DNA of 61,836 bases, the filler included. It is 4 parts of 4 records of this genome, joined end to end, with 100 filler letters (N's around TTAATTAATTAA, not from the genome) between each part and the next. Parts side by side here need not be neighbours in the genome. Positions count along the whole stretch, not along the records: positions 1 to 29,902 come from DRR378314_1423; 3 more parts are not named here. One strand, written 5' to 3'. A program made the position numbers and the translations under genes. Within the stretch, counting starts at the first letter, position 1; each line of letters begins with the position of its first letter. Positions 1,098 to 11,529 of the stretch are shown here, one piece after another. The notes below the pieces were generated by a model. The model searched no databases. It saw only the letters and a program-made list of their open reading frames with translations, and was not told the origin of the DNA.

Positions 1098-2132
1098 CTA
1101 CTTAATAACGATAGGATTAATAGGAGAACCCGAGCCTCGCTCCATCTTTAGAGGCGCAGCAGTAAACATAAAGGTGTATTGACCATCTTCACGGCTATCT
1201 GCCGCCAAATCGTCCAGCCAGTAAAGCTCACTCAACACCACACCTAAGTCCCGAATGAGCGCACCATGTAGCGGGATCACATAATCTTTACCTTCAATCT
1301 TTTGCGGTACAAGTTCAACTGCCAGATTATCAGCCGCAATCACGGGTATCTCCATGTTATCAATCCATTTAATCAGGTCTTTGCTATAACACAAGCCGGG
1401 CTCTGTTGTTGCGCTCCACTCAGCATCTGGTTCCTCTTGATAAAAACGTCCTACAGATCCTGTTCTGATTAACAAAATATCGCGTTTTTCAACAGTTACA
1501 TCCTGCGCTTTTGCGGTGTCCTTGAGGTCTTGTAAAGTAATACATGAACCCGGTGCCAACCGTCCTATGTCACCACCTTTCAAATGCCCGACATCCAGCA
1601 GTACGCCGCGGCCAACAATACCGTGTTCAGCTAAGACACCAACATCAACATGATCATGCCCATGCACTGTGCTATCAGCCGATACCCCGCCATATACTTT
1701 ATCGCCATACCATGCGTGGCCTAGAGCATCCATGTGTGTCGTGCCCTGCAAGTACATGAAAACGGCATCGTCTGAGTACTTAACACCACCGGCCAGTTCA
1801 TCCAGCTTATTTACGCTGTACATACTCTCGTCCTGCGTCATGAAGTGCATTGCCGGAACGCGTCCCGGGAATACTGGCCCTACTCCATGGGTAATCGGCA
1901 GTTGAAGCGTAAAAGTTTCACCTGAACGAACGGCTTTTATACCACGTAAGGCCTGTTTTTCATCAAGGTAGTTAAGGGCGCCAAGTTGATCGTCATCGCC
2001 CCATTTCCCCCAGTTTTTGGGCATATCTTTTTGAAGGTTTTCAATATCGCTGGTCTGAGCCAACGAAACTCCGGAGGCACTCATAAGTGCGGTAGCTAAA
2101 GCCATTGATAGTACTGATTTTATTGTTTTCAT
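1098..2132 (-). CDS. Secreted cyclase-family (KynB/isatin hydrolase-like) metal-dependent hydrolase
   Basis: Sec signal ending SLA-Q; NWGKWGDDDQLGALN; variant metal motif QGTTHMDALGH; DILLIRTG; ADNLAVE; GSGSPINPI. Confidence 0.85.
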   Translation of the reverse strand: MKTIKSVLSMALATALMSASGVSLAQTSDIENLQKDMPKNWGKWGDDDQLGALNYLDEKQALRGIKAVRSGETFTLQLPITHGVGPVFPGRVPAMHFMTQDESMYSVNKLDELAGGVKYSDDAVFMYLQGTTHMDALGHAWYGDKVYGGVSADSTVHGHDHVDVGVLAEHGIVGRGVLLDVGHLKGGDIGRLAPGSCITLQDLKDTAKAQDVTVEKRDILLIRTGSVGRFYQEEPDAEWSATTEPGLCYSKDLIKWIDNMEIPVIAADNLAVELVPQKIEGKDYVIPLHGALIRDLGVVLSELYWLDDLAADSREDGQYTFMFTAAPLKMERGSGSPINPIVIK

Positions 2133-2165
2133 TGTTCTTCCTTTTTTGTTGTTCTAACGCTTATA

Positions 2166-3614
2166 TTAATAACTAAGTTTGATGTACTTAGTTTCTAAAT
2201 ATTCTTCAATTCCATGGCGCCCGCCCTCACGGCCAATCCCCGACGACTTAACGCCACCAAAAGGCACTGCCGCGTCAGATATAACGCCGCTATTAACACC
2301 AATCATTCCAACTTCAAGAGCTCTCGAAAGACGGTTAACCTGTCCTAAGTTCTGGCTGTAAAAATAAGCAGCTAATCCGGTTTGTTGCTGTCTGAGTTCT
2401 TCTAATAAAGCTGTCTCATCGTCGTATCGAACAATAGGTGCAACAGGTCCGAAAATTTCTTCATTCACACAACGCATAGAGCTATCGGCGTTAAGTAACA
2501 CGGTCGGGTAATACCAACGCTCTGAGTTTACCCAACGCTCTCCGCCACAGGCGATTACAGCACCTTTTCTCACAGCATCTGCGACTATCTGCTCTACTTT
2601 TTCGAGCGCATTTTCGTTAATCAATGGCCCGATATCGACGGACTCATTTTTGCCGTTACCCAACATAAGTTGATTTACTCGGGCGATAAGTTTCGCAGTA
2701 AACTCATCGTAAACATTGGCATGAACGTAAAAGGCATTAGCACATACGCAGGTTTGCCCCGCATTACGAAATTTTGATTGGATAGCTCCTTGCACAGCAC
2801 GGTCGACATCCGCTGTTTCACACACAATAAAAGGCGCATTTCCTCCCAGTTCAAGTGAAAGCCGTTTAACCGTTGAAGCTGAGGAAGCCATGAGTAAACG
2901 CCCGACTCGAGTTGAGCCGGTAAAACTTAATTTTCTGACTACAGGACTTTCACTGAATATTTTGCCAATAACCTCCCCGTCGCCGGTTACAATGCTTAAA
3001 ACGCCTTCGGGAATTCCCGCCTGTATTGCCAACTCCGCAATAGCAATAGCTGTCAGTGGGGTTTCAAGAGCAGGTTTCACCAGCATTGTGCAACCAGCCG
3101 CCAGTGCCGGCGCAACCTTTCTAGTGATCATCGCCGCAGGAAAATTCCAGGGCGTTATCGCAGCACAAACGCCTACTGGCTCGGTAATAACCATCATCGA
3201 TTCATCGGTTGATGAATACGGCAGAATGCTCCCCTGGTCTTGCAGGCCTGGCTGCGCATACCATTGAATGTAACTTGCCGCGTAACGTATCTCGCCTCGC
3301 GACTCAGATAATGGTTTACCCTGCTCACTGGTCAAAATGCCAGCCAGCTCCTCTTCCTTTTCAAGCATGAGCTCATACCAGCGGAAAAGCTTCTCGCATC
3401 GCTCTCTGAGAGAAACATCTCTCCACTTATAAAAGGCCGTTTCCGCAAACTCTATAGCGCGGCTTATTTGCCTCGGTGTTAAATCGGGTACGTGACCTAT
3501 CACATTTCCAGTTGCAGGATCATCAACAGCTATTGAGCTGTTTATTGACGTGCCAACCCCGCAGATTTGTTCTAACTCAACATTATCAGGCTGTAAAACT
3601 TGTTCATTATCCAT
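2166..3614 (-). CDS. gabD: NAD(P)-dependent succinate-semialdehyde dehydrogenase-like aldehyde dehydrogenase
   Basis: ITPWNFP, SFTGSTRVG, LELGGNAP, FRNAGQTCVC, EEIFGP, PFGGVKSSGIGREG. Confidence 0.85.
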   Translation of the reverse strand: MDNEQVLQPDNVELEQICGVGTSINSSIAVDDPATGNVIGHVPDLTPRQISRAIEFAETAFYKWRDVSLRERCEKLFRWYELMLEKEEELAGILTSEQGKPLSESRGEIRYAASYIQWYAQPGLQDQGSILPYSSTDESMMVITEPVGVCAAITPWNFPAAMITRKVAPALAAGCTMLVKPALETPLTAIAIAELAIQAGIPEGVLSIVTGDGEVIGKIFSESPVVRKLSFTGSTRVGRLLMASSASTVKRLSLELGGNAPFIVCETADVDRAVQGAIQSKFRNAGQTCVCANAFYVHANVYDEFTAKLIARVNQLMLGNGKNESVDIGPLINENALEKVEQIVADAVRKGAVIACGGERWVNSERWYYPTVLLNADSSMRCVNEEIFGPVAPIVRYDDETALLEELRQQQTGLAAYFYSQNLGQVNRLSRALEVGMIGVNSGVISDAAVPFGGVKSSGIGREGGRHGIEEYLETKYIKLSY

Positions 3615-4983
3615 CGTTCGGTAAGTCCCTTTTTTGCTCTATGCGCCAGCGTTTTTGCTTCTTAACTAAGGTCGACTGGTCAACTCCCAAAGCGCTGGCT
3701 GCTGCCCGGGTCGTACCATGTATCAATAACGCCTCTTCAATTACTTTCTTCTCAAGCATCTCTACCTGCTCTTTTAGTGAGCATCCCTCGCGCCCTAACG
3801 GCCTGTCTGTCGCTATTTCTATAGGCAACTGAGCCGTCGTGATCAGCGACTGCTCAGAAGTCACCATTAATCTTTCTGTCAGGTTAATCAGCTCGCGAAT
3901 ATTACCCGGCCATTGGTATTGTTTAAGACGAGCAATCACATCCGCATGCCAACGACAGTCCAGCTCATAGTTTTCATTGAAATGGTTGAGATAATGTTCA
4001 AGCAGTACGGGGATTTCTTCGATCCTTTCTCGCAAGGGAGGCAGTTCAATCGGTACCACACTCAATCGGTATAGCAAGTCTTCGCGAAAATGACTTTCGG
4101 CAACAAGTTTCTTTAAGTCATGATGTGTTGCAGAAATTAACCGAAAGTTCGTTTGCTTAAACGATGTCGCGCCAACTGGTAAAAACCGCTTCTCATCAAT
4201 AACTTTAAGTAATTTGGCTTGAAGAGTTAGTGGCAAATCACCAATTTCATCAAGAAACAAAGTGCCATTATTAGCCGCCTCAAGTAACCCAGTCTTGCCT
4301 TTCTCGGAAGCTCCGGTGAACGCCCCGGAAGCGTAACCAAATAACTCAGACTCAAGCAGAGACTCTGGCATCGCGGCACAATTTAATTCAATAAAAGGCC
4401 CATTAGCGACAGTGCTGTAACTATGAATAGTCCGTGCAAGCAGTGTTTTTCCGGTACCCGTTTCTCCCTGTAGCAATACTTTCGCAGAGGAACTTGCCAC
4501 TCGTTTCGCGAGATCATAGCAAGCTCTCATTTGCCGACTAATGACAAAAGGCTCTTTATGACCATCGGTTGAAACGGAAGCGCCATATTGCTCTCGTAAG
4601 CTCAGTAACTGTTCCAGTTTTTCCTGTGCTCTTTTGGCTTTTAACAGCTCAGTGACATCCCGAACCGTGGTAACGATGTATTCAATGCTACCGTCCGAGT
4701 CGAACATCGGCGTACCAGAAACTAAAATTTGATGCTCTTTACTTACGTCCTGCGTCAAAGTAACAGGTCTTCTCTCTTTCAAAACCTCCAAAGATACCGA
4801 GCGCGAAATATAGCCACGCTTTACAACTTCGGACATATGTAACCCCCGAAGCTTTTCCTTCGGAATACCGGTAATACGCTCATAGGCCGTATTGACCGTT
4901 ATCGTAATGCCGTTACCATCGGTGATATAAACGCCGTCGCTCATCGCATCTAATACACGTTGTAACCTATCGCTACCGAACAT
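3607..4983 (-). CDS. Sigma54 enhancer-binding activator (PAS-AAA+-HTH)
   Basis: N-terminal PAS, GETGTGKT, ESELFG, GAFTGA, FLDEIG, WPGNIREL, C-terminal HTH. Confidence 0.93.
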   Translation of the reverse strand: MFGSDRLQRVLDAMSDGVYITDGNGITITVNTAYERITGIPKEKLRGLHMSEVVKRGYISRSVSLEVLKERRPVTLTQDVSKEHQILVSGTPMFDSDGSIEYIVTTVRDVTELLKAKRAQEKLEQLLSLREQYGASVSTDGHKEPFVISRQMRACYDLAKRVASSSAKVLLQGETGTGKTLLARTIHSYSTVANGPFIELNCAAMPESLLESELFGYASGAFTGASEKGKTGLLEAANNGTLFLDEIGDLPLTLQAKLLKVIDEKRFLPVGATSFKQTNFRLISATHHDLKKLVAESHFREDLLYRLSVVPIELPPLRERIEEIPVLLEHYLNHFNENYELDCRWHADVIARLKQYQWPGNIRELINLTERLMVTSEQSLITTAQLPIEIATDRPLGREGCSLKEQVEMLEKKVIEEALLIHGTTRAAASALGVDQSTLVKKQKRWRIEQKRDLPNDG

Positions 4984-6334
4984 CCGTCAGCTCCTTTTTA
5001 GGTGCGCGCAAACGCCAGCCATATAGCAAAAAACATAACAGCAGCCCTGCAGCGAAAGCCCAGGTTGCTCCTTTAACTACAAGAATTGCCCCGATAATTC
5101 CAGCTATGCCCAGGTCGCGTTCCGTTTTTGCTTCCTGAATGCCAATACGAACGCTGACGTAGCCTTGTATAAGCAAAGTCAGAGCTAAAGCAATTCCCAG
5201 AATCGGTTGAACTAAGCTAACCACCGGCAGAAGTAAAAGGCCGGTATTGGTTCCCCAGCGAAAAGAACCCGCGCCTCCAAAAATGGAGTCCATCGCTTTC
5301 CGGCCTTTCTTAAAGCGCTCAACAATTACCACATGCATTGCCGCCCATAACGGTCCGCACATCGCAACATCAGGGCCAATAATACTCATACCAAAGTTGC
5401 GGGCACCAAAAATGAGATGCGCGCGGTCGGCGTTGTAATCAATTTTTTCGTCCTGACGCATCTCATCTGCTTCCGCCAGAATAGCTTTGCTCTGCAACAC
5501 ATCGCCGAACAGCACAATATAAGCTGCCAGCACCGTTGGTATGGCAGTTAAAAACATACTAAGAGGCGGTAGCCCGACACCAAAAACGGTGTAATGCGCG
5601 AATAAGGTTGCAAAGTCAGGTGATGTTATACCCCATTCGATATCTGGCCATGGAGCTTCTGAAGCTAGTGGTGCAATTACAATAGCCAACGCGATAATGG
5701 GAAAAATGCCGAGTTTACCCAGTACACGAAGAACCCAGTGTTTATTCTGAACCGTCGTGAAATGACGTGAAAAAATAAGATAAAAAGCAATGCCAACCGC
5801 AATTGAGATAGTAAACGGATAGGATTCGAAACGGCCTCCCTCCTCAAATACTACCGCTACCGCAGCTAATCCGGAGCCCATGATGATTCCAGCTTTTATA
5901 GCACTGGGAATAAGTTGTACAACCCGTTTTGCAACACCGGATGCTCCCAGCCCAATAGCAAAAAGTCCCAGCATCATCTGAAACGCTATCAAAGCATGCA
6001 CTCTCGCTTCCCCCTCCGGAAAGGTTGAGACGTACATCATCAATAAAGGAATAGCGGGCGTTATCCATCCTGGAACAACAGGGTCGCCCAATAAATGGTG
6101 CAGCAGATAAAACGCGCCGTTAATCAGAACAACCGCTAATGCCGCTTCAAATGGCATTCCCAATAATTCGGTCATTAATGATATTGCCGCCAAATCGACG
6201 GCGCACATTAATAACCCCTGCAGATAGTCTGGCCACTCAAAGCGATAATGCAGAAATGGCAATCTGACCTTGAATGGTCCCATAGGCCAGAAAGGTGCTT
6301 CCGCCCCGTCTTTTCGTTGTTTCCATAACGACAT
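4973..6334 (-). CDS. Multi-pass inner-membrane permease of unknown substrate (possibly NCS2/SLC23-like)
   Basis: 453 aa with many hydrophobic helices, inside a catabolic operon; family call tentative. Confidence 0.65.
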   Translation of the reverse strand: MSLWKQRKDGAEAPFWPMGPFKVRLPFLHYRFEWPDYLQGLLMCAVDLAAISLMTELLGMPFEAALAVVLINGAFYLLHHLLGDPVVPGWITPAIPLLMMYVSTFPEGEARVHALIAFQMMLGLFAIGLGASGVAKRVVQLIPSAIKAGIIMGSGLAAVAVVFEEGGRFESYPFTISIAVGIAFYLIFSRHFTTVQNKHWVLRVLGKLGIFPIIALAIVIAPLASEAPWPDIEWGITSPDFATLFAHYTVFGVGLPPLSMFLTAIPTVLAAYIVLFGDVLQSKAILAEADEMRQDEKIDYNADRAHLIFGARNFGMSIIGPDVAMCGPLWAAMHVVIVERFKKGRKAMDSIFGGAGSFRWGTNTGLLLLPVVSLVQPILGIALALTLLIQGYVSVRIGIQEAKTERDLGIAGIIGAILVVKGATWAFAAGLLLCFLLYGWRLRAPKKELTDVR

Positions 6335-6345
6335 AATGAGTCCTT

Positions 6346-7509
6346 TTAATAAGCGGCCTGATAAATGGCTTCGATATCATCGACGCTAAGTTCACGAGGG
6401 TTATTTCGCAGTAAACGAGTCACGCCACTCGCCGCTTCGGCCAGTGAACGCAGATCACTGCGTTCAATACCAAACTCTCTTAATCCGCCGGGAATTTCGA
6501 CAGCCCGGCAGAGGGATTCAAGTTTATCAATAACGAAGTCTCCTGCGTCGGCTTCGCTAATCGTTGCCTCAGCCCCCATTGCCAGCGCGATATTGAGAAA
6601 ATCATTTGGGCAGGATGATAGATTCCAGCGCATGACGTGAGTGAACATCAGTGCATTACTAACCCCATGCGACAAGTGATAACGCCCGCCCAGGGGATAA
6701 GCCAAGGCATGGACTGCACCAACTCCTGCATTTCCGAATGCCAACCCAGCCATTAAGCTACCGGTAGCCATACGCTCTCTCGCGTCGAGATCATCAGGAC
6801 GTCGATAAGCATCGGGCAAGGCGTTGACAATCATTTTTATGGCGCCTACTGATAACGCCCGGGTGATATCTGAAGCAAAATTAGAAATATAACTTTCTAC
6901 GGCGTGCACCAATGCATCAATGCCACTTGCTGCCGTTACAGATGGCGGGCAACTCTGCGTCAATTCCGGTGCAACAATCGCCACATCCGGCAGCAGTTCA
7001 TCGCTGACAATCCCCTTTTTCAGTTGTGCCTCTACGTCTGACAGGATGGATATGTTAGTGACTTCGGAGCCTGTTCCTGCGGTGGTCGGTAAACAAATTA
7101 AAGGTACGGTTCGCCGCGCACAGTTGTTCTCGCCAAACAGTTCGTTCAAAGCTCTCTTCTCACTTTGATATACCGCAACGGCTTTTGCGGTATCCATTGC
7201 ACTGCCGCCACCAATTCCAATAATCCCATCACAGCTTTCATTAATGAAAACGTCACGGCACGACTCAACGACATGGGTTTCTGGCTCCGCTGATATCTCA
7301 GAGTAAATAACAATACCCGTAATGCCCTGACTTTTAAGTTCGGTAACAATAGGTTGAATTAGCCCGGCATCAAGTACGCCTTTATCCGTTACAATTAAGG
7401 GATGCCTCAAGTTAAGCCTGCACATCTCTGAAAATAGCTGGTTACTTGCTCCTGAGCCGGTAAGCAATCGCCCCGCCGTTTTAAAAACCTGTACGCTATT
7501 AGCTGTCAT
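6346..7509 (-). CDS. Iron-containing alcohol dehydrogenase (hydroxy-acid/4-hydroxybutyrate dehydrogenase-like)
   Basis: GGGSAMDTAK, PTTAGTGSEVT, DALVHAVE, GAVHALAYPLG, HGVSNA. Confidence 0.9.
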   Translation of the reverse strand: MTANSVQVFKTAGRLLTGSGASNQLFSEMCRLNLRHPLIVTDKGVLDAGLIQPIVTELKSQGITGIVIYSEISAEPETHVVESCRDVFINESCDGIIGIGGGSAMDTAKAVAVYQSEKRALNELFGENNCARRTVPLICLPTTAGTGSEVTNISILSDVEAQLKKGIVSDELLPDVAIVAPELTQSCPPSVTAASGIDALVHAVESYISNFASDITRALSVGAIKMIVNALPDAYRRPDDLDARERMATGSLMAGLAFGNAGVGAVHALAYPLGGRYHLSHGVSNALMFTHVMRWNLSSCPNDFLNIALAMGAEATISEADAGDFVIDKLESLCRAVEIPGGLREFGIERSDLRSLAEAASGVTRLLRNNPRELSVDDIEAIYQAAY

Positions 7510-7552
7510 AGATTTCCTTCATCTATACCTTCAAGTTATGTCAATAAACTGT

Positions 7553-7568
7553 AGCAAAACCCGTACCA
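7553..7568 (-). promoter_or_regulatory. Sigma54 -24/-12 promoter of the ADH operon
   Basis: Minus strand TGGTAC-GGGTT-TTGCT vs consensus TGGCAC-N5-TTGCW. Confidence 0.85.
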
Positions 7569-7637
7569 CTCACAACAAAATTATATAACCCTTTGTTTTT
7601 AAATTACTTTACGTGATTTCACCTGCTGAAATTAAAA

Positions 7638-7694
7638 TATTTTGATGAATTAAATCATCAAAATACCCAGATTTGATGAGATATTTCATCAAAT
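7638..7694. promoter_or_regulatory. Tandem palindromic enhancer (UAS) sites TTTGATGA-N6-TCATCAAA
   Basis: TATTTTGATGA-ATTAAA-TCATCAAAATA (7638-7665) and ATTTGATGA-GATATT-TCATCAAAT (7671-7694), centres 31 bp apart. Confidence 0.8.
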
Positions 7695-7755
7695 AATTAA
7701 ATGTAAATACATTAAAAAATCATAAAAAACATAGAGTTATCTAAAGCCATCTGTT

Positions 7756-7771
7756 TGGCACAAGCATTGCT
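7756..7771 (+). promoter_or_regulatory. Sigma54 -24/-12 promoter of the porin gene
   Basis: TGGCAC-AAGCA-TTGCT, exact consensus. Confidence 0.9.
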
Positions 7772-7821
7772 ACTCAAACCGCTGACATTAGTCACATAAT
7801 AAAAAACCAGGGATTATAAAA

Positions 7822-8982
7822 ATGAATAACAAATACACTATTTACCGGTCGCTAGGTATTGCAGGAATGTTAATCAGTGGAAGCTCAGCAGCGCAGACAG
7901 CTCCGGACTGGGATTTCAATTTTAACGGCTACATCAATGCGCATGCGGTATACGCGAGCTGTGATGACTCTAATAATACCGTCGCAGGAAACGCCCTGCT
8001 CTGTATTGGTGAAGACGCTACGTCAGTATCAAATGGATACAGCCCGTCCAGCTTTCAATTCTCAGCAACAACTCAGACACATGATTTCGATATAAAAGCA
8101 TTTTTAGCAATTGAGCCAGGATCTACCGATAACAGTGCCTTTAACGGCAACGGAGATAATCGGGCTTACCGAGCGTATTTTACGGTAGGAAATGACGATG
8201 TCGGAACGTTAAAAGTCGGACGCGGATATGGAGTATTCGGCATTGATGTTGTTTTAGAGGATATGGCATTGAGTGGTGTCGGCGCGCCGGCCTCAATTCG
8301 CAGTCCATTAAATACCTCCTTGGGTGCTGCAGGCTATGGCTATATTTTTGCCGACCGGCTGTCTCAAATCACATACAGCCGGGCACTAGGCGAGAACTTC
8401 CACGCTGATATCGGTATTTTTCAACCTTTAGATTCGGTAAGTTTTGGCGGCAATGGCTATGTTGGCGACTCAGGTTCTGAGCGCCCGGGGCTTCATGGAC
8501 GGCTTCGCTATAACTACGACTACGGATTTGTTTCAACTACCTTCTATAATCAAAAGGTCAGTACCTCACTTGATGACTACGATGCAAAAGGAATCGATAT
8601 CACCGCCGCCATCCAGTTTGATGACACTCGTTTATCACTTTCCGCTTTTGATGCGTCAGGCCTGGGCTATTACGGGTTATTAATCGATGCAGCAGATGTC
8701 AACGGCAGTCCCCGCGATAGCTCAGGCTGGTTTACACAGCTAACCCATCAATTTGGTGCAACCAAAGTTGGGCTGAATTATGGCACGTCAAAAGTGGACT
8801 TAGCTGGCGTAGACAGCTTAGAGCAAGTCAAACAACAAACAAAAGTCAGCGCTGCCGTTTATCACACCTTATGGGAAATTTTTACGGTTTCGGCTGAAGT
8901 GTCGGCGCTAGAAGCAGAAAACCACATGAACCAAAGCATTAAAAACGAAGCTTTCAGTATCGGCTTTGCGCTGTCATTTTAA
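7822..8982 (+). CDS. Outer-membrane porin
   Basis: Signal peptide, beta-strand pattern, C-terminal Phe (ALSF). Confidence 0.8.
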   Translation: MNNKYTIYRSLGIAGMLISGSSAAQTAPDWDFNFNGYINAHAVYASCDDSNNTVAGNALLCIGEDATSVSNGYSPSSFQFSATTQTHDFDIKAFLAIEPGSTDNSAFNGNGDNRAYRAYFTVGNDDVGTLKVGRGYGVFGIDVVLEDMALSGVGAPASIRSPLNTSLGAAGYGYIFADRLSQITYSRALGENFHADIGIFQPLDSVSFGGNGYVGDSGSERPGLHGRLRYNYDYGFVSTTFYNQKVSTSLDDYDAKGIDITAAIQFDDTRLSLSAFDASGLGYYGLLIDAADVNGSPRDSSGWFTQLTHQFGATKVGLNYGTSKVDLAGVDSLEQVKQQTKVSAAVYHTLWEIFTVSAEVSALEAENHMNQSIKNEAFSIGFALSF

Positions 8983-9145: not shown

Positions 9146-10018
9146 ATGGCGAATTCAGGCATCATACTGGTGGCGTCAGCGGCGCTGTTCTGGGGACTGT
9201 CCGGCGGAATAGCCGGCATTCTCATCAACGACGATTGGAATGCCGTTTTAGTATCTTTTTGCCGGGGTGCTGTCGGGCTTATATTTGTGCTGATGTGGTT
9301 GGTTTTAAGACCACGTAATAGTGGGCTCACTAACAGTAAGTTATGGTTATGGTCTATCATCGCCGGGTTTGGGGTCTCCGGAAATTTCGCTTTTTATTTC
9401 TTAAGTATTTCTGAGAGCAGCGTTGCCGTTGCAGCGACACTCATGTATTGCGCCCCCATATTTGTCTACCTAATTTCTTTCGCCGTTAAAATTGAACGCC
9501 CCACGTTAAGCAAATGTGCTGCAATATTGTTAGTCATGGCTGGTGTCCTATTGCTCACCCGTGTGTATCAAGTCGACAGCGGTGGTATCACTTCTATAGG
9601 CGTCATAGCCGGACTTCTTTCAGGTATGTCACTGGCGCTTTTTATTTTTGGTTTTAAATACGCAGCCAGGCAAGGCAGTCCTCAGGCCGTTCTTGCAATC
9701 GCGTTTTCTACACTGACATTGATTCTGGGCACATTAATCGATATCGAGGAAGCAGGCAGAGTCGTCAACTCCGTGGACTGGCCGCTCTTTGCTATTCTCG
9801 GAGTACTGGGTGGCGGCGCATCCTTTATTCTTTATATTATTGGGCTGAGAAGAACGTTGCCAGCACTGGCGTCCATAGTGGCGACAATAGAACCCGTTAC
9901 GGCCGCGCTATTCGGCGTCATCATTTTAGGTGAGGTTCTGGCTTACACTCAGGTACTCGGAATGCTGATAATACTGGCTACGGTCACTGCTCTGGGCGTT
10001 TATTCCAGCAAACAGTGA
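9146..10018 (+). CDS. DMT/EamA family transporter
   Basis: About ten TM helices, LMYCAPIFV, ATIEPVTAALFG; ATG at 9146 preferred over TTG at 9134. Confidence 0.85.
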   Translation: MANSGIILVASAALFWGLSGGIAGILINDDWNAVLVSFCRGAVGLIFVLMWLVLRPRNSGLTNSKLWLWSIIAGFGVSGNFAFYFLSISESSVAVAATLMYCAPIFVYLISFAVKIERPTLSKCAAILLVMAGVLLLTRVYQVDSGGITSIGVIAGLLSGMSLALFIFGFKYAARQGSPQAVLAIAFSTLTLILGTLIDIEEAGRVVNSVDWPLFAILGVLGGGASFILYIIGLRRTLPALASIVATIEPVTAALFGVIILGEVLAYTQVLGMLIILATVTALGVYSSKQ

Positions 10019-10104
10019 AGCTTTTACTTAGATTACCTCAGTATATTTGCGCGGAACCCTGTTACAATAACCACAGAAACCTGACACAGAAAGTGGCCCC
10101 TTTA

Positions 10105-11529
10105 ATGCCTATAAATACGCTTGAACATATCTCGGATAACACTTCTGAGACTTCACCTGAACTCCTTCACTTTAATCAACTGAACCTGCCGCCAGCGTTA
10201 CTGACACGGCTTGATGAAATTGGTTATCAACAAATGACACCGGTGCAGTCCTTAAGCTTGCCGGTTATTTTAAATAATACCGACGCTGTTGTTCGCGCGG
10301 ATACCGGTTCAGGAAAAACCACCGCTTTTTCGTTGACTTTGCTGGCAAAGCTGGATGCAAAAAGCTTTTCGCCACAGGCGTTGGTGTTGTGTCCTACTCG
10401 TGAACTCGCCCATCAGGTTGCTGACGAGGTTCGTAAGCTGGCTAAATCAATGCTTAATATCAAAATACTGACCCTGTGCGGTGGCGAGCCATCGCGTATT
10501 CAGACCAACTCGCTAGAGCATGGCGCTCATGTATTGGTTGGCACACCCGGGCGGGTACTTGATCATCTTGAGCAGCGCAATGTTGATTTGTCCATGTTGA
10601 CGACTCTGGTTCTTGATGAAGCCGACCGAATGTTAGAAATGGGATTTCAGGACAGCCTCAACGCCATCGTTAAACACATTCCAAAAACACGACAGACATT
10701 ATTATTCAGTGCCACCTACCCTAAAAATATCGCCGCGTTAGCAGAACAGGTGACAACTAAGGCAAGAAATATTGAGGCCATTCAAGAGCAGGCAAAGCCA
10801 CAAATCGAACAGCTCTTTTATGCCATGAATAATGAAGACAGCGCACAGCTGGTAATGAATTTACTGGGCGATCATCAACCCGAAAACTGTCTGGTTTTCT
10901 GCAACACCAAGAACGAAGTAAAAGACATTTTTAACACACTTAGGGCCAATAAATTCAGCGTATTGGCTCTGCATGGTGAGCTTGAACAAAAAGATCGCGA
11001 TCAGGCGATTATACAATTTAGTAATGGCAGTGCTCGCGTACTCATTGCAACCGATGTCGCTTCCCGTGGGCTGGATATCGCCGAACTTGATTTAGTGATT
11101 AGCGTTAATATGGCTCATGATTTAGACACTCATACCCACCGCATAGGTCGTACTGGACGCGCGGGCAAAGAAGGCGTCGCAATAACCTTAATTGCAGAAA
11201 AAGATGATTATAAAATGCGTTTGCTTGAGGATACTTTTGCGGCGCCTATTCAAGTACAGCCTGCGCCAGCGCTGTCTAACAACAAACCGTTGAAAGCGAA
11301 TATGTCGACCATACAAGTCAGTGGCGGGAAAAAAGACAAGTTGAGACCGGGTGACATTGTTGGTGCCCTAACGAAGGATAACGTTTTAAGTGCTGACGAC
11401 ATTGGAAAAATAAAGCTGGAAAGTACCTTTGGTTTTGTTGCGGTAAACTCCCGTTTGGCTAAGCACGCTTTAGGGCTTATCAATAATAATAAAATAAAAG
11501 GTAAGAAGTTTCGGGCGAAAGTACTTTAA
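10105..11529 (+). CDS. dbpA: ATP-dependent RNA helicase DbpA
   Basis: TGSGKT, PTRELA, DEAD, SAT, HRIGRTGR, C-terminal GGKKDKLRPGDIVGAL domain; start approximate. Confidence 0.92.
   Translation: MPINTLEHISDNTSETSPELLHFNQLNLPPALLTRLDEIGYQQMTPVQSLSLPVILNNTDAVVRADTGSGKTTAFSLTLLAKLDAKSFSPQALVLCPTRELAHQVADEVRKLAKSMLNIKILTLCGGEPSRIQTNSLEHGAHVLVGTPGRVLDHLEQRNVDLSMLTTLVLDEADRMLEMGFQDSLNAIVKHIPKTRQTLLFSATYPKNIAALAEQVTTKARNIEAIQEQAKPQIEQLFYAMNNEDSAQLVMNLLGDHQPENCLVFCNTKNEVKDIFNTLRANKFSVLALHGELEQKDRDQAIIQFSNGSARVLIATDVASRGLDIAELDLVISVNMAHDLDTHTHRIGRTGRAGKEGVAITLIAEKDDYKMRLLEDTFAAPIQVQPAPALSNNKPLKANMSTIQVSGGKKDKLRPGDIVGALTKDNVLSADDIGKIKLESTFGFVAVNSRLAKHALGLINNNKIKGKKFRAKVL

Follow-up and report, generated by a model that had tools for sequence, protein, structure and literature searches.

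The stretch of DNA considered here (61,836 nucleotides, referred to as the window) carries, between positions 1098 and 8982, a cluster of six genes for which a role in the catabolism of an ester or lactone of an omega-hydroxy acid is proposed. The source of the window is Idiomarina, and a metagenome-assembled genome (MAG) record of this genus (L006) carries the cyclase-like hydrolase of the cluster at 99% protein identity and the other five proteins at 94–99% identity. A five-gene operon on the minus strand is divergent from a porin gene, the operon genes following one another in the order iron-type alcohol dehydrogenase (Fe-ADH), permease, PAS/sigma-54 activator, aldehyde dehydrogenase (ALDH) resembling succinate-semialdehyde dehydrogenase (SSADH), and PF04199 cyclase. 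Along the operon (1098–7509), these genes are separated in turn by a gap of 11 nt, overlaps of 11 nt and 8 nt, and a gap of 33 nt. Ten open reading frames (ORFs) from the initial 13 kb of the window were scanned with family models and, taken together, profile matches (Pfam, NCBIfam), translations and a structural model of the porin place all six genes where the original prediction had put them:

1098 to 2132, minus strand: PF04199 cyclase-like metal hydrolase, predicted periplasmic esterase or lactonase, 344 amino acids (Pfam; match to PDB 5IBZ)
2166 to 3614, minus strand: SSADH-like NAD(P)+ aldehyde dehydrogenase, 482 amino acids (PF00171, TIGR01780)
3607 to 4983, minus strand: PAS / sigma-54 AAA+ / helix-turn-helix enhancer-binding activator, 458 amino acids (PF00158, PAS, HTH_50)
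4973 to 6334, minus strand: DUF3360/PurT-family permease with 14 transmembrane helices, 453 amino acids (match to PDB 7TAK)
6346 to 7509, minus strand: iron-type (group III) alcohol dehydrogenase, 387 amino acids (PF00465, PF25137)
7822 to 8982, plus strand: 16-strand outer-membrane porin, 386 amino acids (AlphaFold model, Foldseek)

The cyclase scores 62.2 bits on PF04199, against a gathering cut-off of 23.1, and its N-terminus (MKTIKSVLSMALATALMSASGVSLA/QT) reads as the Sec signal that had been proposed for it, with lysines at positions 2 and 5, a hydrophobic core and a final S-L-A. Its closest solved relative is MGS0169 (PDB 5IBZ, E 2.5e-63 over residues 39–344), with an identity of about 39% as counted on the printed alignment. 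The canonical HxGTHxDxPxH metal motif is absent from the cyclase, where the corresponding positions read Q129-G-T-T-H133-M-D135-A-L-G-H139, and a Gln stands in place of the first His of the motif in all of the 18 homologues aligned. Eight residues of the cyclase (Q129, H133, D135, H139, R91, F88, H289 and E302) are invariant in this alignment; the first four map to Q127, Q131, D133 and H137 of MGS0169 and the others to R87, F84, H286 and E299. The two proteins share fold and family, and six of the seven active-site residues of MGS0169 are identical in the cyclase (Q129, D135, H139, R91, H289, E302). They differ in the second motif residue, which is His133 in the cyclase and Gln131 in MGS0169, and in the clear signal peptide of the former.

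MGS0169 has been described as a cyclase-like metal-dependent carboxylesterase, recovered by a functional screen from a marine metagenome (Popovic et al., 2017; PMC5341072, here and below for the portions of that report available). It is stimulated most by Mn2+, then by Mg2+, then by Co2+ and Ni2+, and acts best on p-nitrophenyl (pNP) acetate and phenyl acetate, with a kcat/KM of about 2e5, its activity on isatin being about 1000 times weaker. A modified motif, Gln127-x3-Gln131-x-Asp133-x3-His137, has been defined in this enzyme; mutagenesis backs the roles of Q127, Q131, D133, R87, H286 and E299, with Arg87, His286 and Glu299 found to be required by alanine scanning (PMC5341072). The same source, in the portions available, describes no natural substrate or gene context for MGS0169, and it reports that the trans-dienelactone hydrolase of Pseudomonas reinekei MT1 is likewise a PF04199 protein with a modified Gln motif which opens a gamma-lactone ring. 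The latter enzyme acts in chloroaromatic degradation, a different setting from the present one, and is likened to the cyclase by that description and not by sequence. Given these two enzymes, ester hydrolysis, and in at least one reported case lactone hydrolysis, has precedent in this branch of the family. The cyclase of the window is most likely an esterase or lactonase, as predicted from its sequence, acting in the periplasm. The proposal that an exported cyclase-type protein would fill the hydrolase position is borne out in the window and its relatives as far as sequence can tell, the closest characterised homologue being a metal-dependent carboxylesterase.

Export appears to be a property of a whole clade. 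By eye, a signal peptide can be recognised in 17 of the 18 aligned homologues, and those at least 59% identical to the cyclase all have a hydrophobic leader; the haloarchaeal homologue from Halorussus has a leader with an RR pair (Tat-like), while that of Flagellimonas contains an LLLGC stretch, by eye a possible lipobox. Cytoplasmic relatives (Corynebacterium, Blastomonas) start about 28 residues later and have a Q-x3-Q motif, and on these sequence features the exported clade is distinct from them. Some cytoplasmic relatives adjoin acyl-CoA ligases; these, like a Cupriavidus record without annotation, give loose hints only. On a 23-kb mobilisable plasmid of Corynebacterium stationis (L099, 6727–8963), a zinc-dependent alcohol dehydrogenase (Zn-ADH), 47–49% identical to the partner alcohol dehydrogenases of Marinobacter and Bacteriovoracaceae, faces a cytoplasmic Q-x3-Q cyclase-like protein; because of this two-gene module, the pairing of alcohol dehydrogenase (ADH) and cyclase is seen to reach non-exported relatives.

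The permease had been regarded as unknown, a view that no longer holds. It has no Pfam or NCBIfam match, and it aligns over residues 6–443 with PDB 7TAK, the PurT protein of Colwellia psychrerythraea (E 4e-110), with about half of the aligned residues identical. PurT has been described as a dimer of 14-helix NAT-fold subunits which binds guanine, xanthine, adenine and hypoxanthine at about 2–3 uM and carries xanthine together with H+; the substrates described in the portions of the report available are nucleobases and analogues, nucleosides, ascorbate and glucose (PMC10438392). Homology extends over the whole length of the two proteins, and the proton-coupling Asp276 in transmembrane helix 8 of PurT is conserved as D278 of the permease, invariant in 16 sequences. 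In contrast to PurT, the permease belongs to a tighter group, 70–89% identical across Gamma- and Alphaproteobacteria and Bacilli, which keeps company with alcohol dehydrogenases, no purine-metabolism gene being present in the plasmid and metagenome contexts that were annotated or scanned with Pfam. One source labels a member of the group as DUF3360, and its neighbours in a protein atlas are clusters named benzoate transporter, BenE and xanthine/uracil permease.

The genomic company of the permease was surveyed with a permease alignment in metagenomes, which gave 80 loci, 79 of them with a scorable permease; neighbours were counted within 5 kb, and the 43 loci flanked by 4 kb or more on each side were considered well flanked. 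The counts were as follows:

Alcohol dehydrogenase (any of three non-orthologous types): 61 of 79 loci; 42 of 43 well-flanked loci, the exception being L158
Aldehyde dehydrogenase: 25 of 79 loci; 18 of 43 well-flanked loci
Sigma-54 regulator: 24 of 79 loci; 16 of 43 well-flanked loci
Cyclase: 15 of 79 loci; 11 of 43 well-flanked loci
Porin: 11 of 79 loci; 9 of 43 well-flanked loci
AttM lactonase: 1 of 79 loci (L166); 1 of 43 well-flanked loci

When the permease was sampled across the class it proved rare, 7 of 400 genomes giving a match at E 1e-60 and only 2 of them exceeding 70% identity; in one genome (G822) no panel gene lies near the permease. In a metagenome contig (L142, 5794–13942), the permease lies between a pyrroloquinoline quinone (PQQ)-dependent quinohaemoprotein alcohol dehydrogenase and a group comprising a thiamine pyrophosphate (TPP) enzyme, a blc-type Fe-ADH and a PhaE-like subunit of polyhydroxyalkanoate synthase, a context that suggests a possible tie of the transporter to the metabolism of diols or polyhydroxyalkanoates.

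A close parallel is provided by the blcABC (attKLM) operon of Agrobacterium, which breaks down gamma-butyrolactone via gamma-hydroxybutyrate and succinic semialdehyde (PMC5924552, as far as that source was available). Both systems appear to follow one logic, with a hydrolase, an Fe-type ADH and an enzyme of the SSADH type acting in turn, and permease orthologues about 70–76% identical to that of the window occur inside blc/att operons, beside the AttM lactonase, Fe-ADH and SSADH, so that the analogy drawn in the original prediction is supported. On an Agrobacterium tumefaciens plasmid (L094), a 73%-identical permease follows IclR and SSADH genes and faces genes for an Fe-ADH and an N-acyl-homoserine lactonase; the lactonase scores 481 bits on the AttM equivalog model (cut-off 390) and the SSADH passes its own cut-off at 705.5, and this locus is therefore taken as a true blc/att operon. 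The metagenome contig L166 has the order LacI, permease, AttM (81% identical), Fe-ADH and SSADH, and Thioclava plasmids carry an IclR gene with SSADH, Fe-ADH and permease and no hydrolase. The window differs from blcABC in several respects. Its hydrolase is an exported PF04199 protein, whereas that of blc is the cytoplasmic AttM lactonase of metallo-beta-lactamase fold, and no Lactamase_B or AttM match was found among the ten ORFs scanned. Control is predicted to lie with a PAS/sigma-54 activator in place of the IclR repressor BlcR, and a dedicated porin is added. The families of the Fe-type gamma-hydroxybutyrate dehydrogenase BlcB and of the SSADH BlcA are both present in the window, with an ADH from another subfamily (38% identity) and an ALDH that falls below the SSADH cut-off.

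The ALDH matches PF00171 at 530 bits and is 51–53% identical to the SSADHs of blc-like plasmid operons. The Fe-ADH matches PF00465 and PF25137.

The divergent ORF has no match to any family model, and its assignment as a porin, made at the outset, is sustained by a structural model. Its AlphaFold model, calculated with 10 orthologues, is a 16-strand beta-barrel (pTM 0.70, pLDDT 67.5) with a low-confidence stretch at residues 138–178, between strands 5 and 6, taken as an inward loop, and the sequence ends in F. The best Foldseek matches of the model (E about 1e-13) are Omp32 with malate, DcaP and 1E54, labelled as dicarboxylate-linked in the case of DcaP and as an anion-selective porin in that of 1E54; atlas neighbours belong to the Porin_4 and Porin_1 clusters. 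The modelled resemblance to 16-strand anion-selective porins of the Omp32/DcaP type is accompanied by a sequence identity of only 13–14%. Orthologues 60–99% identical accompany the gammaproteobacterial clusters, and relatives at 28–29% head two flavobacterial ones.

A scan of genomes for the cyclase gave 80 loci, of which 40 encode a protein at least 55% identical to that of the window, that is, of the exported clade; 31 of these have at least 6 kb on both sides and were considered well flanked. The neighbours of the 40 loci were counted as follows:

Permease: 21 of 40 loci; 17 of 31 well-flanked loci
Fe-ADH: 18 of 40 loci; 15 of 31 well-flanked loci
Aldehyde dehydrogenase: 19 of 40 loci; 16 of 31 well-flanked loci
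Regulator: 14 of 40 loci; 12 of 31 well-flanked loci
Porin: 15 of 40 loci; 12 of 31 well-flanked loci

All six genes are found together in Idiomarina, Pseudidiomarina, Aliidiomarina, Alishewanella, Paraglaciecola and Spongiibacter. In 14 further loci a class-III-like Zn-ADH replaces the Fe-ADH, which brings the loci where an ADH adjoins the cyclase to 32 of 40; the others are L013, L020, L023, L025, L030, L034, L038 and L049, three of which have little flanking DNA. Twelve of the Zn-ADH loci are from Marinobacter, Franzmannia or Aquisalimonas, with the Zn-ADH gene followed by that of the cyclase and, where the flank suffices, an AtoS/AtoC-like sigma-54 two-component pair, one or two Peripla_BP_6 proteins, and a Liv-type permease and ATPase. 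A Bacteriovoracaceae MAG has SSADH and Zn-ADH facing cyclase and permease. In Flavobacteria, a Flavobacteriales MAG carries aminotransferase, cyclase, permease, Zn-ADH and ALDH, while Ulvibacter and Marixanthomonas have a porin-like gene, class-III aminotransferase, cyclase, Fe-ADH, permease and ALDH, the class-III aminotransferase lying directly beside the cyclase in flavobacterial clusters. The co-occurrence of porin, cyclase, permease, ADH and ALDH recurs across two phyla. The remaining 40 loci, with more distant cyclases (haloarchaea, Streptomyces), have the permease in none; the Streptomyces homologues are 35–38% identical, and around those of haloarchaea (38–48% identity) no neighbour recurs, the genes seen there being for SnoaL, enolase-superfamily, aldolase, AMP-ligase and Cu amine oxidase proteins. 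The distribution of the cyclase is patchy, with 5 of 25 species sampled in the genus and 2 of 401 in the GTDB order.

Three single loci of the cyclase may be recorded beside these counts. In a Pseudoalteromonas sp. (L013, 6725–11032) the cluster is decayed, with the DDE transposase of an insertion sequence (IS) element at the position of Fe-ADH and permease, followed by a 195-residue C-terminal remnant of the sigma-54 activator and then by intact ALDH and cyclase. A Paraglaciecola MAG (L025, 7089–12113) has permease and cyclase between paralogous DUF2608 proteins, with no ADH, ALDH or regulator nearby. In a Tenacibaculum MAG (L024, 8558–20171), cyclase, Fe-ADH, permease and ALDH are interleaved with biotin carboxylase, class-III aminotransferase, LamB/YcsF, CT_C_D and CT_A_B genes of the 5-oxoprolinase-like PxpABC type, which hints at an ATP-dependent lactam-opening branch alongside the esterase.

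The activator matches PF00158 at 219.7 bits, together with PAS and HTH_50, and is conserved at 56–75% identity in orthologous clusters; it is encoded inside the operon which it is predicted to control. The features of a sigma-54 enhancer-binding system are all found here, namely the AAA+ domain, the GAFTGA loop in the translation, the helix-turn-helix domain and two promoters with GG-N10-GC spacing, and rpoN is present in the nearest genome. The 312-bp spacer between the operon and the porin gene contains the following elements:

7554 to 7568, minus strand: sigma-54 (-24/-12) promoter of the operon, TGGTAC-N5-TTGC (motif match, conservation)
7643 to 7660, no strand assigned: palindrome TGATGA-N6-TCATCA, candidate activator-binding site 1 (perfect match, conservation)
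7674 to 7691, no strand assigned: palindrome TGATGA-N6-TCATCA, candidate activator-binding site 2 (perfect match, conservation)
7756 to 7770, plus strand: sigma-54 promoter of the porin gene, TGGCAC-N5-TTGC (motif match, conservation)

These two promoters are the only matches to TGGYAY-N5-TTGC in the window. The palindrome, with at most one mismatch allowed, has 3 matches in the window against 0.13 expected, a number reached in 0 of 100 shuffles. Seven orthologous divergent spacers were compared (the window, three species of Pseudidiomarina, two of Aliidiomarina, and Alishewanella), and all seven contain both promoters and at least two palindrome matches. Since this layout of two promoters with palindromes between them recurs in orthologous spacers, the enhancer which the operon and the porin gene had been suggested to share is confirmed. 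Among the six colinear clusters, where the porin gene lies downstream on the same strand, five have a sigma-54 promoter ahead of the Fe-ADH gene, and the palindrome is not kept in this type. A scan for sigma-70 promoters and terminators gave nothing above shuffled sequences, and no terminator was found inside the operon.

A weak hint of expression comes from contigs of three metatranscriptome runs (two samples, one study) which are 90–99% alike to the window. Contigs cover 1263–3002, bridging cyclase and ALDH, and one spans 3052–7474, comprising ALDH, regulator, permease and Fe-ADH, with another reaching 7541; the porin gene is covered over 7784–8952 by a contig starting at 7784. Between them, positions 7542–7783 are uncovered in the three runs. 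The two -12 elements predict starts near 7542 (minus strand) and 7782 (plus strand), a few bases at most from where the contigs end. Such contigs cannot prove transcript ends or single transcripts, and DNA may be present in the libraries. Run X4 is uninformative on transcription, as one 19-kb contig spans everything, the intergenic region included.

Taken together, these data make it probable, on balance, that the locus is a sigma-54-controlled catabolic cluster in which a core of the 4-hydroxybutyrate type is preceded by a periplasmic front end. The core consists of the permease, the ADH and the SSADH-type dehydrogenase. In the proposed route, the ester would enter through the cluster's own porin, the simplest candidate being a gamma-lactone such as gamma-butyrolactone, and another an omega-hydroxy acid esterified as an O-acyl or oligomeric compound. 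Once in the periplasm, the ester bond would be cut by the exported PF04199 metal hydrolase, and the DUF3360/PurT-family permease, proposed to be an H+ symporter, would import the resulting omega-hydroxy acid, most likely 4-hydroxybutyrate. Within the cell, the Fe-ADH would yield the semialdehyde and the SSADH-like enzyme the dicarboxylate (succinate). The PAS/sigma-54 activator may bind the two TGATGA-N6-TCATCA palindromes and, in response to a pathway intermediate, activate the two divergent promoters. The support for each of the chemical steps, as for the identity of the substrate and the inducer, is comparative, and it is on this footing that we infer them.

Comparison across loci indicates that three parts are exchanged while the design is kept: the importer is either DUF3360 or a Liv-type ABC system, the ADH is one of two Fe types or a Zn type, and the hydrolase is AttM or the exported cyclase. 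The unchanging design pairs a hydrolase and an importer with the oxidation of an alcohol and usually also with aldehyde oxidation of the SSADH type. The permeases of AttM operons, the flavobacterial aminotransferase, which fits a shared semialdehyde hub, and the SSADH-like ALDH suggest that this hub is succinate semialdehyde or one of its close homologues and that the imported compound is 4-hydroxybutyrate. The exchange of parts and the evidence for the hub therefore lend support to a route by which an ester or lactone enters through the porin and is hydrolysed in the periplasm, after which the omega-hydroxy acid is taken up and oxidised in two steps to a dicarboxylate. It has been reported that gamma-aminobutyric acid (GABA) enters Agrobacterium through the Bra ABC system with the binding protein Atu2422 (PMC5924552, in the part available). 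In the Marinobacter variant of the cluster, the import genes accompanying ADH and cyclase are those of the Liv type. The Bra system is presumably of this type too and, if so, it fits that variant.

A number of observations weigh against this interpretation. The best NCBIfam scores of the Fe-ADH are below the equivalog cut-offs (ErcA, 339.9 against 550; 4-hydroxybutyrate dehydrogenase, 246.3 against 500), the enzyme is only 38% identical to the Fe-ADHs of blc-like operons, and the ALDH, with 624.7 bits on the SSADH model TIGR01780, is just under the cut-off of 646.35. The substrates described for MGS0169 in the available text are aryl and alkyl monoesters, not lactones or hydroxy-acid esters (PMC5341072). 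PurT, the sole studied relative of the permease, binds and transports purines in vitro, as far as its description goes, which shows that the fold accommodates quite different ligands, and more distant relatives have neighbours of a sulfonate-like or acyl-CoA kind: on a Fusobacteria plasmid (L181) a permease of 55% identity is accompanied by a TauE exporter, an Fe-ADH and a glycyl-radical enzyme with its activase, and a 41%-identical one on a Halomonas plasmid (L182) by acyl-CoA dehydrogenase, acyl-CoA synthetase, 3-hydroxybutyryl-CoA dehydrogenase and enoyl-CoA hydratase. Many of the counted loci are from related organisms and are not independent, the permease counts in particular overstating independence because many contigs are near-identical. 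The core of Fe-ADH, permease, regulator and SSADH occurs without the cyclase in 8 metagenome loci (L112, L164, L171, L175–L178 and L180), so that the cyclase extends the core but is dispensable for it, and the cyclase in turn lacks the permease in 19 of the 40 genome loci. Finally, gamma-butyrolactone is small and membrane-permeant, for which reason a dedicated porin and a periplasmic lactonase look unnecessary for it. The real substrate may therefore be a larger or charged ester, which suggests as candidates an O-acyl or oligomeric ester of 4-hydroxybutyrate, or an acyl-homoserine lactone, the opened form of which has a primary alcohol.

Other explanations of the cluster have to be set against these considerations. 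The exported enzyme might be an amidase or lactamase acting on a gamma-lactam (2-pyrrolidone) or an N-acyl omega-amino acid, with a GABA-like product transaminated to the same semialdehyde. Characterised PF04199 members do include isatin hydrolase and kynurenine formamidase, MGS0169 is itself weakly active on isatin as described, and the flavobacterial aminotransferase beside the cyclase, with PxpABC-like (oxoprolinase-type) genes in one cluster, agrees with this idea; the window cluster, on the other hand, has an ADH and no aminotransferase in the first 13 kb, an aminotransferase accompanies the cyclase in only 4 of the 40 loci as against 32 for an ADH, and the preference of MGS0169 for esters is about 1000-fold (PMC5341072), all of which leave it unlikely. 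About as improbable, if by a shade less so, is that the cyclase serves a purpose of its own, such as scavenging or detoxifying various esters, as an addition mechanistically uncoupled from an operon that imports free 4-hydroxybutyrate-like acids. Such a division of labour would account for the loci where core and cyclase occur apart, the Thioclava plasmids among them, and for the breadth of MGS0169, found in vitro to be active over a library of 89 esters in the text available (PMC5341072). Against it, the permease-less cyclase still directly follows the ADH, with a Liv-type ABC importer, in the 12 loci of Marinobacter, Franzmannia and Aquisalimonas, so that hydrolase, importer and ADH stay together while individual parts are exchanged, and in two phyla the porin, cyclase and permease genes share one cluster.

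A pathway for a hydroxy-sulfonate of the isethionate kind, or another small hydroxy anion, in place of 4-hydroxybutyrate is a distinctly less likely explanation than either of these. It draws on the Fusobacteria plasmid permease, in a gene set which we take to resemble isethionate sulfite-lyase clusters, on a set of 77%-identical permeases lying between TauE and a Zn-ADH (L114), and on the 285.6 bits of the Fe-ADH on the sulfoacetaldehyde reductase model. The ALDH, in contrast, reaches only 294.1 bits on the sulfoacetaldehyde dehydrogenase model as against its 624.7 on SSADH, the most similar permeases with an identifiable hydrolase sit in AttM/SSADH operons, and the 13 kb examined at the start of the window contain no desulfonating enzyme. 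It seems very improbable that the permease would simply import purines as PurT does, with its presence in the operon having nothing to do with the dehydrogenases. The binding of purines at micromolar concentrations by PurT, its transport of xanthine with H+ and the conserved Asp speak for this possibility; the absence of purine genes from the contexts examined and the presence of an ADH near all but one of the 43 well-flanked permeases speak against it, and the PurT tests described in the accessible text cover nucleobases, nucleosides, ascorbate and glucose only (PMC10438392). As a whole, the PurT/DUF3360 family looks tied to small organic anions and not to purines, and the purine assignment of PurT comes from in-vitro assays only.

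Returning to the route from ester to dicarboxylate, a wider reading may be put forward tentatively and is held to be less likely than not to be right in full. It states that the DUF3360/PurT family would in nature import small hydroxy acids (here 4-hydroxybutyrate) in place of purines, and that the Q-x3-H cyclase-like esterase and its private porin would form an undescribed outer-membrane-to-cytoplasm route, in marine bacteria including Flavobacteria, by which a C4 compound, esterified or in lactone form, would be harvested. Candidates for it are a lactone signal, an oligoester of 4-hydroxybutyrate, and some marine metabolite that is abundant yet has gone unrecognised. The folds and the blc logic are known; what appears to be new is that a cyclase-like esterase of the exported Q-x3-H type is combined with a porin of its own, a permease of the DUF3360 group and control by sigma-54. 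In a literature search outside of which most subscription journals lay, no paper on DUF3360, or linking cyclase-family proteins to lactonases, was found, nor was any follow-up on MGS0169 beyond the original paper; among the papers listed on gamma-hydroxybutyrate, gamma-butyrolactone, lactonases and transporters, titles or abstract starts revealed no bacterial transporter of the permease's family. Natural roles are suggested here for three orphan families, namely the MGS0169-type esterase, the PurT/DUF3360 transporter and a porin without a family model. In a pathway of the blc type, an exported enzyme appears to have taken the place of the non-homologous AttM lactonase. Many marine heterotrophs may draw carbon from an ester or lactone of a C4 hydroxy acid and, should the substrate include lactone signals, a periplasmic quorum-quenching activity of a new fold would be at hand.

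Two further ORFs of the window may be mentioned. On the minus strand, 221 nt downstream of the cyclase, an ORF at 319–876 encodes a 185-residue signal-peptide protein with a weak match to an outer-membrane beta-barrel family (PF13505, E 0.0026); it follows the cluster only in Idiomarina relatives (72–95% identity) and not in Pseudidiomarina or other genera. On the plus strand, an ORF at 10015–11529 encodes a DbpA helicase of 504 residues when read from its GTG start. As the DbpA model matches only from residue 52, the true start of this gene is probably further downstream.

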